IMG/VR virus record: IMGVR_UViG_2698536552_000012
Reading direction: 5' to 3' (one strand)
Source: a virus
Lineage: Duplodnaviria; Heunggongvirae; Uroviricota; Caudoviricetes
Length of the DNA stretch: 6,339 bases
The notes under the pieces were generated by a model. The model made no database searches. It had not been told where the DNA came from and worked only from the letters and a program-made list of their open reading frames with translations. The translations under genes were made by a program, and so were the position numbers. Positions 3,918-4,970 of this stretch are shown here, piece after piece (the first letter of the stretch is position 1; each line of letters begins with the position of its first letter).

Positions 3918-4438
3918 AGTTTTTGACCGAAGCTATTGTGCACAACTCCATCGCCAAGAATTGTGGCTCCGTATAGAGTTCCATCGTCAGTTAAGGCCTG
4001 CGCCGCATTGCGTATTACACAGCTTTTTGTAGATATATTTCCAGGCAGGCAGTGAAGAAGGTAAAACATGGAAATGGAATCAAATTGACCATGTAACGCC
4101 GCGGGATAAGGTTCAAAAACATCATGGCTAATTTTATGTTTAATTTTTGATTCCCCAGCCCTTGTAGATGCCGCGTTCAGGCTAGCTTCGTTCAAATCCA
4201 TTAAAGATATCAGACTACTCTCAGGTACGTGAGTAAGGTAAAACCCAGTTCCAACACCAATATCCAGATGGTTGTTACCTAAATGTTCCAGAAAGTGTGG
4301 AAGAAGGTGTTCCTTTGTAGGACATCCCCATGCAAGCCGATTTGATACTCCCAAAACCCACCAGTCATAAAGCTTTAGGGTAAGTGGTGTGTAAATTTTA
4401 GCCCCATCATCTGTGTTTGTTTTCATTGATTTCACCAT
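3918..4438 (-). CDS. Class I SAM-dependent methyltransferase (Rossmann-fold, probably small-molecule or protein MTase); C-terminus lost in the N-run
   Basis: Start ATG at 4436-4438, or more likely ATG at 4424-4426 which has GGTGA 5 nt upstream. It has motif I LDIGVGTGF, an acidic end of beta-2 (ISLMDLNEA) and a motif II-like FDSISMFYLLHCLP. No DPPY/NPPF or PCQ DNA-methyltransferase motifs are present in the visible 173 codons. Confidence 0.6.
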
Positions 4439-4478
4439 GTTATAGTTTTATTTGTGAATTAAATCAATTATGGCGATG

Positions 4479-4639
4479 NNNNNNNNNNNNNNNNNNNNNN
4501 NNNNNNNNNNNNNNNNNNNNNNNNNNNNNNNNNNNNNNNNNNNNNNNNNNNNNNNNNNNNNNNNNNNNNNNNNNNNNNNNNNNNNNNNNNNNNNNNNNNN
4601 NNNNNNNNNNNNNNNNNNNNNNNNNNNNNNNNNNNNNNN
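4479..4639. other. N-run (161 nt)
   Basis: Literal n characters. Confidence 1.
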
Positions 4640-4799
4640 AACTGCACCTGATATTGAGTGGCCTGCAAATCCTGTCAGGGAGTAATCATTGGGATTATGC
4701 CGCAGACACGTCGTATGCAGGAACGTGCTGCGGTTAGTTTGTGAGCTTTCGATAGTGGTTGTTATTTTTGCCCTTATTTGTTCCGGAGGCCATGGTTCA

Positions 4800-4970
4800 A
4801 TGGTCCGTCTGCCCCCTGTGGTGATGTCAGCAAAATCAGCCACTGCGCGAACCACAATAGCCCGGGAAGATGCTGAAGATCACCAGGTAAAGCTGTCAGC
4901 GCAGAAACTGGAAGAACTGCTCGCATCAATGGTTAAGGATGAGGTTGATCGCAATGATGGGATTTATTGA
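4800..4970 (+). CDS. Hypothetical small charged protein, 56 aa
   Basis: ATG at 4800 with GGAGG 10 nt upstream (4785-4789). Translation MVRLPPVVMSAKSATARTTIAREDAEDHQVKLSAQKLEELLASMVKDEVDRNDGIY has helical, protein-like composition. It overlaps a minus-strand ORF of uncertain validity and has no recognisable family. Confidence 0.25.
   Translation: MVRLPPVVMSAKSATARTTIAREDAEDHQVKLSAQKLEELLASMVKDEVDRNDGIY

Follow-up and report, generated by a model that had tools for sequence, protein, structure and literature searches.

Identification of the methyltransferase gene

We analyzed positions 3918–4855 of a 6339-nt stretch of viral DNA (Caudoviricetes; IMG/VR record IMGVR_UViG_2698536552_000012; the whole stretch is hereafter called the window), in which a first-pass annotation had placed a cargo gene for an S-adenosylmethionine (SAM)-dependent methyltransferase together with a possible co-transcribed partner gene hidden in a run of N (N-run). 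Judging from its matches, the whole window derives from Shigella sonnei and covers the right arm of a decayed lambdoid prophage, inserted at the ompW/trpA site. Complete S. sonnei chromosomes such as L021 and L023, reached through exact protein matches of a tail-fiber-assembly (tfa) open reading frame (ORF) of 177 residues and a truncated stf ORF of 104 residues, showed 100.000% identity to all visible segments of the window except 2969–3676, and they served as the resolved counterparts of the masked bases.

The ORF, the Pfam matches and the phrog_2132 profile identified 3918–4438 on the minus strand as the visible 5' three-quarters (173 codons) of a gene for a YbcY-family class I SAM-dependent methyltransferase. 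The annotated start was the ATG at 4438–4436 (MVKSMKTNTDD...), and the frame entered the N-run at 3677–3917, inside which the remaining 3' 148 nt are hidden together with the stop codon. The methyltransferase region was identical (100%) to 4920–5480 of L021, and in the identical S. sonnei genomes the full gene was intact, with 222 codons as annotated. The phrog_2132 profile matched the protein with an E-value of 4e-157 over 218 of 218 profile positions, a full-length match in which no difference was found; this family carries no functional annotation.

The visible 561 nt matched 3828 of 5426 complete Escherichia coli genomes (~70%), some of them in as many as four places, and in 14 lambdoid phage records the match covered nearly the full length. 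They were 98.75% identical at the nucleotide level to ybcY (b0562), a pseudogene of the DLP12 prophage of E. coli K-12. Homologues with 56–90% identity were distributed across Enterobacterales, Aeromonas, Shewanella and Pasteurellaceae, and searching 1.84 billion representative proteins with a profile returned 410 clusters at E<=1e-30, nearly all of about 215–235 residues, that spanned phyla and included Acidobacteria, Chloroflexi and lichen-forming fungi. No characterised name was found among the members of this 410-cluster family, no informative fused domain was present in its eight longer members, and in the literature ybcY occurred in lists only, no functional study being found. One RCC1 fusion among the longer members was fungal and is probably a gene-model merger. 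Another copy of the methyltransferase, at 99.6% identity, lay on a 4.3-kb contig (L008, JBJEFM010000006.1) that bears the label of a Bacillus sp. metagenome bin and is probably a binning contaminant. The methyltransferase gene is a known, annotated and very common gene of lambda-like prophages in E. coli and Shigella, and its description as prophage cargo of unknown function agreed with these results.

The region upstream of the methyltransferase gene

A minus-strand TAA at 4450–4448 closes a frame ending in IAIIDLIHK, and 9 nt (4439–4447) separate this TAA from the annotated ATG of the methyltransferase. The first-pass annotation had read this frame, which emerges from the N-run at 4479–4639, as the end of an operon partner. 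The frame is indeed present at that distance, but its visible part (4448–4478, minus strand) amounted to 10 codons only, and it was not the end of a gene. In 12 resolved homologues (from E. coli, K-12 DLP12, phage 2G7b, enteroinvasive E. coli, Shigella flexneri, Escherichia albertii and the Bacillus-labelled metagenome contig) and in S. sonnei L021, the hidden bases next to the frame began AATTACAAGGGG. The minus-strand reading was the same in 13 of 13 resolved copies, namely ...L-stop-FIAIIDLIHK-stop, a TAA interrupting the frame two codons into the N-run; none of these copies had an ATG, GTG or TTG start between the two stops. The 135-codon ORF listed at 4448–4855 by the ORF tool was an artefact that arose because N was translated as X.

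The bases that this frame occupies can be read in another way. On the minus strand, the annotated ATG was preceded by a −35 hexamer TTGATT (4467–4462), a 17-nt spacer and a −10 hexamer TATAAC (4444–4439), which the ATG follows directly; the predicted promoter region covers 4439–4472. In the genomic SELEX (systematic evolution of ligands by exponential enrichment) map of the RpoD holoenzyme in K-12, TTGATT-17-TATAAC is listed as the ybcY promoter, and the ybcY/tfaX spacer carries a divergent promoter site for this holoenzyme together with H-NS (PMC3946193). Positions 4467–4439 of the window carried promoter bases identical to those of the K-12 ybcY listing. A consensus promoter scan gave an alternative site, TTAACC-16-CATAAT, with its −10 hexamer CATAAT at 4472–4467 and its −35 hexamer within the N-run; the scan returned no more sites than expected by chance. 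The methyltransferase gene is most likely transcribed from its own predicted sigma-70 promoter in a short divergent spacer. The TAA that the first-pass annotation had read as the terminus of a partner gene falls within the spacer of this promoter, and the 9-bp spacing, which had been offered as that expected of an operon, overlaps the −10 box and loses that meaning. Downstream of the methyltransferase gene, a terminator scan found no terminator.

The same bases bear on the translation start. Met5 was invariant across an alignment of 37 homologues, and all 36 of the others start at this fifth codon and lack the annotated start; the corresponding ATG at 4426–4424 is preceded by GGTGA. Because the −10 box abuts the annotated ATG at 4438 and Met5 is conserved, the true start is probably the ATG at 4426–4424, which would give a protein of 218 rather than 222 residues.

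On the far side of the divergent spacer, decayed tail-fiber genes occupied the plus strand. In the identical S. sonnei genomes, the stretch behind the N-run at 4479–4639 held 240 nt, which comprised the remainder of the divergent spacer as well as the greater part of a plus-strand tfaX-type remnant. The window shows the last 15 codons of this tail-fiber-assembly (tfaX-type, Caudo_TAP) remnant at 4640–4685, ending in ...TAPDIEWPANPVRE and a stop codon. In E. coli EC958 the remnant is an 89-codon ORF with the end ...RVDTSTAPDIEWPANPVRE, and in S. sonnei it contains an in-frame TAG. The remnant matched phrog_2341 at E=4e-61, as well as phrog_105, phrog_188 and phrog_136, which are annotated as tail fiber assembly; PF02413 was found on its called genes, so that it belongs to Caudo_TAP as a fragment without the N-terminus. 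It is annotated as a tail-fiber-assembly pseudogene in EC958 and as tfaX in K-12. At 4689–4970 on the plus strand it was followed by a remnant of a DUF4376/tail-fiber C-terminal gene (phrog_7703/phrog_1141; a DUF4376 pseudogene in EC958), in which gene callers predicted a plus-strand ORF of 56 residues.

A second open frame on the minus strand, beginning MVRAVADF and comprising 116 residues when resolved (visible part 4640–4855), ran antisense to these remnants. It was in another frame than the IAIIDLIHK tail, and in resolved sequence it stopped 146 nt before the methyltransferase ATG. It gave no family match in Pfam, NCBIfam, PHROGs or PADLOC, and it was neither annotated nor called in any genome inspected. 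In three sequence pairs among EC958, an ipaHe locus and K-12, the plus-strand tfaX frame had accumulated 8–11 synonymous versus 2–3 non-synonymous substitutions, whereas the open antisense frame had 1 synonymous versus 10–12 non-synonymous. This ORF was judged spurious, being apparently mere antisense of the plus-strand tfaX and DUF4376 remnants. Long open frames are to be expected opposite a gene, whether real or decayed, and do not show that a further gene exists.

The neighborhood of the more distant homologues was also compared. In Salmonella, Enterobacter, Yersinia, Aeromonas and Erwinia, the homologues (56–65% identity) were solitary chromosomal genes located outside prophages, with a long upstream intergenic region and unrelated neighbors, and no neighbor gene was shared or conserved among the loci of these five genera. 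An intact, conserved same-strand ORF by the methyltransferase start was found neither in the 13 resolved copies nor in these genera.

These observations bear on a two-gene minus-strand operon, in which a partner of about 135 codons within the N-run would be coupled in translation to the methyltransferase, the two forming a toxin/immunity or effector-associated pair. A frame ending 9 nt before the annotated ATG and an ORF of 135 codons listed when N is read as X are what such an operon would present at first sight. The stop two codons into the gap, the different frames of the two visible pieces, the non-coding substitution pattern on the minus strand, the lack of family matches, the overlap of the spacer with the −10 box and the lack of a conserved upstream gene beside homologues of any genus examined all stand against it. 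The resolved homologues, which show no in-frame upstream ORF, refute the operon, barring a private rearrangement in this strain, and we give it next to no chance. As far as the resolved copies tell, the hidden upstream partner gene does not exist.

We therefore consider it very probable that the region 3918–4855 contains one real gene, a solitary, monocistronic class I SAM methyltransferase of about 220 residues with its own promoter, and no second gene, with plus-strand remnants lying upstream. Several points weigh against this reading. The verdict on the partner was drawn from genomes identical to the window at its visible non-ipaH bases, not from the strain's own masked bases. Use of the promoter is known as RNA polymerase binding in K-12 only, the hexamers are predicted, and the scan performed at chance level. 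H-NS binding in K-12 suggests that the methyltransferase gene may be silent in laboratory conditions, and since ybcY is a pseudogene in K-12, this strain at least can do without the gene.

Sequence motifs and predicted activity of the methyltransferase

The visible 173 residues scored above the Pfam cut-offs for Methyltransf_12 (38.3 bits; cut-off 30), Methyltransf_25 (28.3; 27) and Methyltransf_11 (25.3; 21.2). The alignment of 37 homologues had 56 invariant columns. The SAM-binding motif I was DIGVGTG at residues 59–65, and D81 and D106 were invariant in the 37 homologues, as were the H105-D106 pair, a Y126/H129/C130 cluster after strand 4, and Y16 and Y24-D25-W26-W27 in the N-terminal helix. 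An AlphaFold model of the protein was confident, with a predicted local distance difference test (pLDDT) score of 89.4. The motif, the Pfam scores and the predicted seven-stranded alpha/beta fold all placed the protein in the class I SAM methyltransferases. Foldseek matched the model overwhelmingly to small-molecule methyltransferases; a few RNA methyltransferases were among the matches, and DNA methyltransferases were absent.

A DNA methyltransferase of the N6-adenine, N4-cytosine or C5-cytosine type was rejected. Neither a (D/N/S)PP(Y/F/W) motif nor PCQ/ENV motifs nor a target-recognition domain was found in the 222-residue sequence, and Pfam reported generic small-molecule methyltransferase domains alone, without a DNA-methylase domain. 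The first-pass view of a SAM-dependent methyltransferase free of DNA-methyltransferase signatures was in accord with the domains, motifs and fold matches. From its motifs and predicted fold, the protein can confidently be taken as a SAM-dependent enzyme, and it most likely acts on a small metabolite or a lipid rather than on DNA. In such an enzyme, SAM would bind in the Rossmann-like fold through DIGVGTG (59–65), D81 and D106, a small substrate would sit beneath an N-terminal helical lid with Y16, Y24, D25, W26 and W27, and methylation would occur beside the invariant Y126, H129 and C130.

Comparison with known enzymes did not point to one substrate. The solved small-molecule class I methyltransferases matched by the model, including juvenile hormone acid methyltransferase (7ec0), PmtA (8ys9), SgvM (8rpr), MM_2633 (3dtn), BelI (9fce) and UbiG (4kdr), shared 11–21% identity with it; no single one was best, and none of them allowed a substrate to be assigned by analogy. 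Sequence searches of the PDB returned weak matches to juvenile hormone methyltransferase and UbiG, and the curated NCBIfam cut-offs were missed for PmtA (NF045882, 15.7 versus 390 bits), RquA (NF038261, 16.9 versus 175) and CpaM (NF043040, 18 versus 180). In PADLOC there was one marginal match, to mad2 (14.6 bits, E=0.0027), and no partner genes were found.

One specific activity to be weighed was that of a PmtA-like phospholipid N-methyltransferase, which would alter the membrane of the lysogen by producing methylated phosphatidylethanolamine or phosphatidylcholine. The bacterial phosphatidylethanolamine N-methyltransferase 8ys9 was ranked 2 and 8 by Foldseek, with template modeling scores (TM-scores) of 0.61–0.67, the NCBIfam PmtA profile gave a weak match (E=0.0098), and the proteins are of comparable size and share an N-terminal helix. 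However, the score of 15.7 bits against that profile compares with a cut-off of 390, and methylated phosphatidylethanolamine and phosphatidylcholine are not known among the lipids of E. coli, though ~70% of strains carry the gene. We regard this activity as distinctly unlikely.

A role as a prophage-encoded component of anti-phage defence or counter-defence would suit the position of the gene in the accessory region beyond the tail fibers, a region that is a frequent home of defence genes, and could be seen behind the weak mad2 match. That match is marginal, however, and was accompanied by neither a partner nuclease nor any other system component; the protein has no DNA-methyltransferase motifs, its close homologues include the solitary, chromosomal, non-prophage genes described above, and its family extends to Acidobacteria, Chloroflexi and fungi. 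A defence role is highly unlikely on this evidence, and the small-molecule enzyme encoded by a solitary gene remains the preferred reading.

Hydrolase or esterase genes were noted within a few kb of a homologue at four loci (L001, 6067–7551; L014, 7584–8414; L045, 3281–4813; L039, 7170–9173). They were of several kinds (alpha/beta hydrolase, carboxylesterase, GDSL lipase autotransporter) and stood in unrelated contexts, and their presence may be coincidence. Assignment of a function from these nearby genes was rejected as too inconsistent between loci.

The ipaHe segment downstream of the methyltransferase gene

On the minus strand at 2969–3676, beyond the N-run into which the methyltransferase gene runs, the window held the 5' part of ipaHe with the leucine-rich repeat (LRR) domain, an ATG at 3529 and 147 nt of upstream region. 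It was 99.7% identical to the annotated ipaHe 5' part and upstream region of enteroinvasive E. coli. N-runs flank this ipaH segment on both sides, so that its linkage to the locus is putative, as is the first-pass placement of the methyltransferase between the effector and a Rha-like regulator. In the complete S. sonnei genomes read, which are identical to the window elsewhere, ipaH was absent from the ompW locus, and the methyltransferase of the window was the ompW-locus allele. The ipaH piece at this locus is most likely a scaffolding misplacement across a collapsed two-copy repeat, in which case it would probably derive from a separate ipaHe–methyltransferase locus; a strain-specific recombinant is the less likely alternative. 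If the 226-N run next to the segment had its true length, ipaH would lack the ligase domain.

The sequence GTATCGTTTTTTTACAG lay on the minus strand at 3648–3664, 119 nt upstream of the ipaH ATG at 3529, and in our reading it matches the MxiE box. By this match, the ipaH copy carries its own candidate secretion-activity-regulated promoter element. A 17-bp MxiE box has been described (PMC3299695).

The first-pass annotation had suggested a search for conserved synteny with ipaH in other genomes, and the adjacency proved real. In 18 prophage loci of enteroinvasive E. coli, S. flexneri and IMG/VR records, ipaHe lay directly downstream of the methyltransferase gene on the same strand, with methyltransferase copies 98.9–99.6% identical and a constant stretch of 316 nt. 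The association was one-sided, since ipaHe was found in 9 of the 5426 complete E. coli genomes and the methyltransferase match in 3828. With this imbalance and with solitary homologues elsewhere, the toxin/immunity or effector-linked role proposed for the block was not upheld. No relevant paper came up in a literature search for ipaH together with prophage, methyltransferase and tail fiber.

The 18 loci could also be taken to mean that ipaH and the methyltransferase form a functional unit, in which the enzyme serves the effector or read-through from its promoter feeds ipaH. The immediate same-strand position of ipaHe and the constant hidden 316 nt are compatible with such a unit, as is a report that the upstream region of one chromosomal ipaH class has a modal length of 315 nt (PMC9046306). 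Over 99% of the genomes that carry the methyltransferase do so without ipaH, ipaHe has its own putative MxiE box at 3648–3664, and the identical complete S. sonnei genomes lack ipaH at the locus. We consider a functional unit very improbable. A broader proposal would make the YbcY-family enzyme an unrecognised lysogenic-conversion enzyme, normally silenced by H-NS, that methylates a specific small molecule of the bacterium or its host, the invariant same-strand position 315 nt before ipaHe in all ipaHe prophages seen reflecting functional or transcriptional coupling with that effector in Shigella and enteroinvasive E. coli; it is very unlikely.

The prophage arm and the lengths of the N-runs

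The same prophage arm was present in E. coli EC958 and many other genomes at 99% identity. The order along this arm was tail-fiber-assembly genes, truncated tail fiber, truncated invertase, tfa fragment and methyltransferase, followed by a tfa fragment, a DUF4376 fragment, Rha, Ash, an ompW remnant and trpA. The window starts in the end of an IS3-family element (1–95) and finishes in an IS1 end (6230–6339) that adjoins the ompW remnant and trpA. The ORF of 104 residues at 70–384 belonged to a protein cluster named from S. sonnei alone, and it was a tail-fiber gene truncated by the IS3-family element to 104 codons, specific to S. sonnei. A frozen invertible tail-fiber segment was seen at 350–2636, containing tfa on the plus strand (350–913), tfa on the minus strand (942–1475), the C-terminal part of a tail fiber on the minus strand (1478 to about 2390) and, on the plus strand, a Pin/Gin-type invertase cut to 68 codons (2430–2636).

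Comparison with L021 showed that the N-runs did not keep their length. The run at 1905–2155 had 251 nt in the window versus 264 nt in L021 and that at 4479–4639 had 161 versus 240 nt; the run at 5196–5446 had 251 in both. The stretch 2743–3917, made up of 226 N, the 708 nt of ipaH and 241 N, had 1175 nt versus 240 nt. These were three length differences, each exactly under N-runs, and otherwise no difference was found over about 4.5 kb. The 241 N at 3677–3917 likewise stood against the constant 316 nt in 18 of 18 resolved ipaHe–methyltransferase loci. The N-runs are most readily explained as gaps in the assembly whose size was estimated, not as length-preserving masks; under either explanation, reading frames cannot be carried across them. 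The lesson for the method is that a frame must not be followed through N-runs when, as here, their lengths are unreliable.

In S. sonnei, 118-nt direct repeats made of tfa 3' ends (4614–4731 and 5663–5780 in L021; 2683–2742 on the plus strand and 4640–4705, plus hidden bases, in the window) stood on either side of the methyltransferase gene; they were 90% identical and lay 1049 nt from each other. Because tfa 3'-end repeats bracket the module, they suggest that it arrived by phage recombination at tail-fiber-assembly genes.

The methyltransferase as a prophage accessory gene

In this reading the methyltransferase is accessory cargo gained by a phage genome, a so-called 'moron', placed just beyond the lambdoid tail-fiber genes and oriented against the late genes, and it is the intact counterpart of ybcY. 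K-12 DLP12 shares the layout tfaD-ybcY-tfaX, with a tfa 3' end, a methyltransferase on the opposite strand and a divergent tfaX remnant. The difference lies in the state of the gene, which is an annotated pseudogene in K-12, whereas the copy in the window is intact as far as it is visible and intact (222 codons) in the identical S. sonnei genomes. The arrangement also resembles the 'exchangeable effector loci' of E. coli O157, which Tobe and colleagues reportedly described in 2006 downstream of lambdoid tail-fiber genes. As in those loci, cargo (methyltransferase, ipaHe, ompT, hydrolase) is carried between the tail-fiber genes and the prophage end, flanked by tfa fragments, but the methyltransferase is not known to be secreted as an effector. 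For the YbcY family the finding comes down to an orphan-enzyme question that nothing in the window makes newly testable, namely on which substrate a very common prophage methyltransferase acts.

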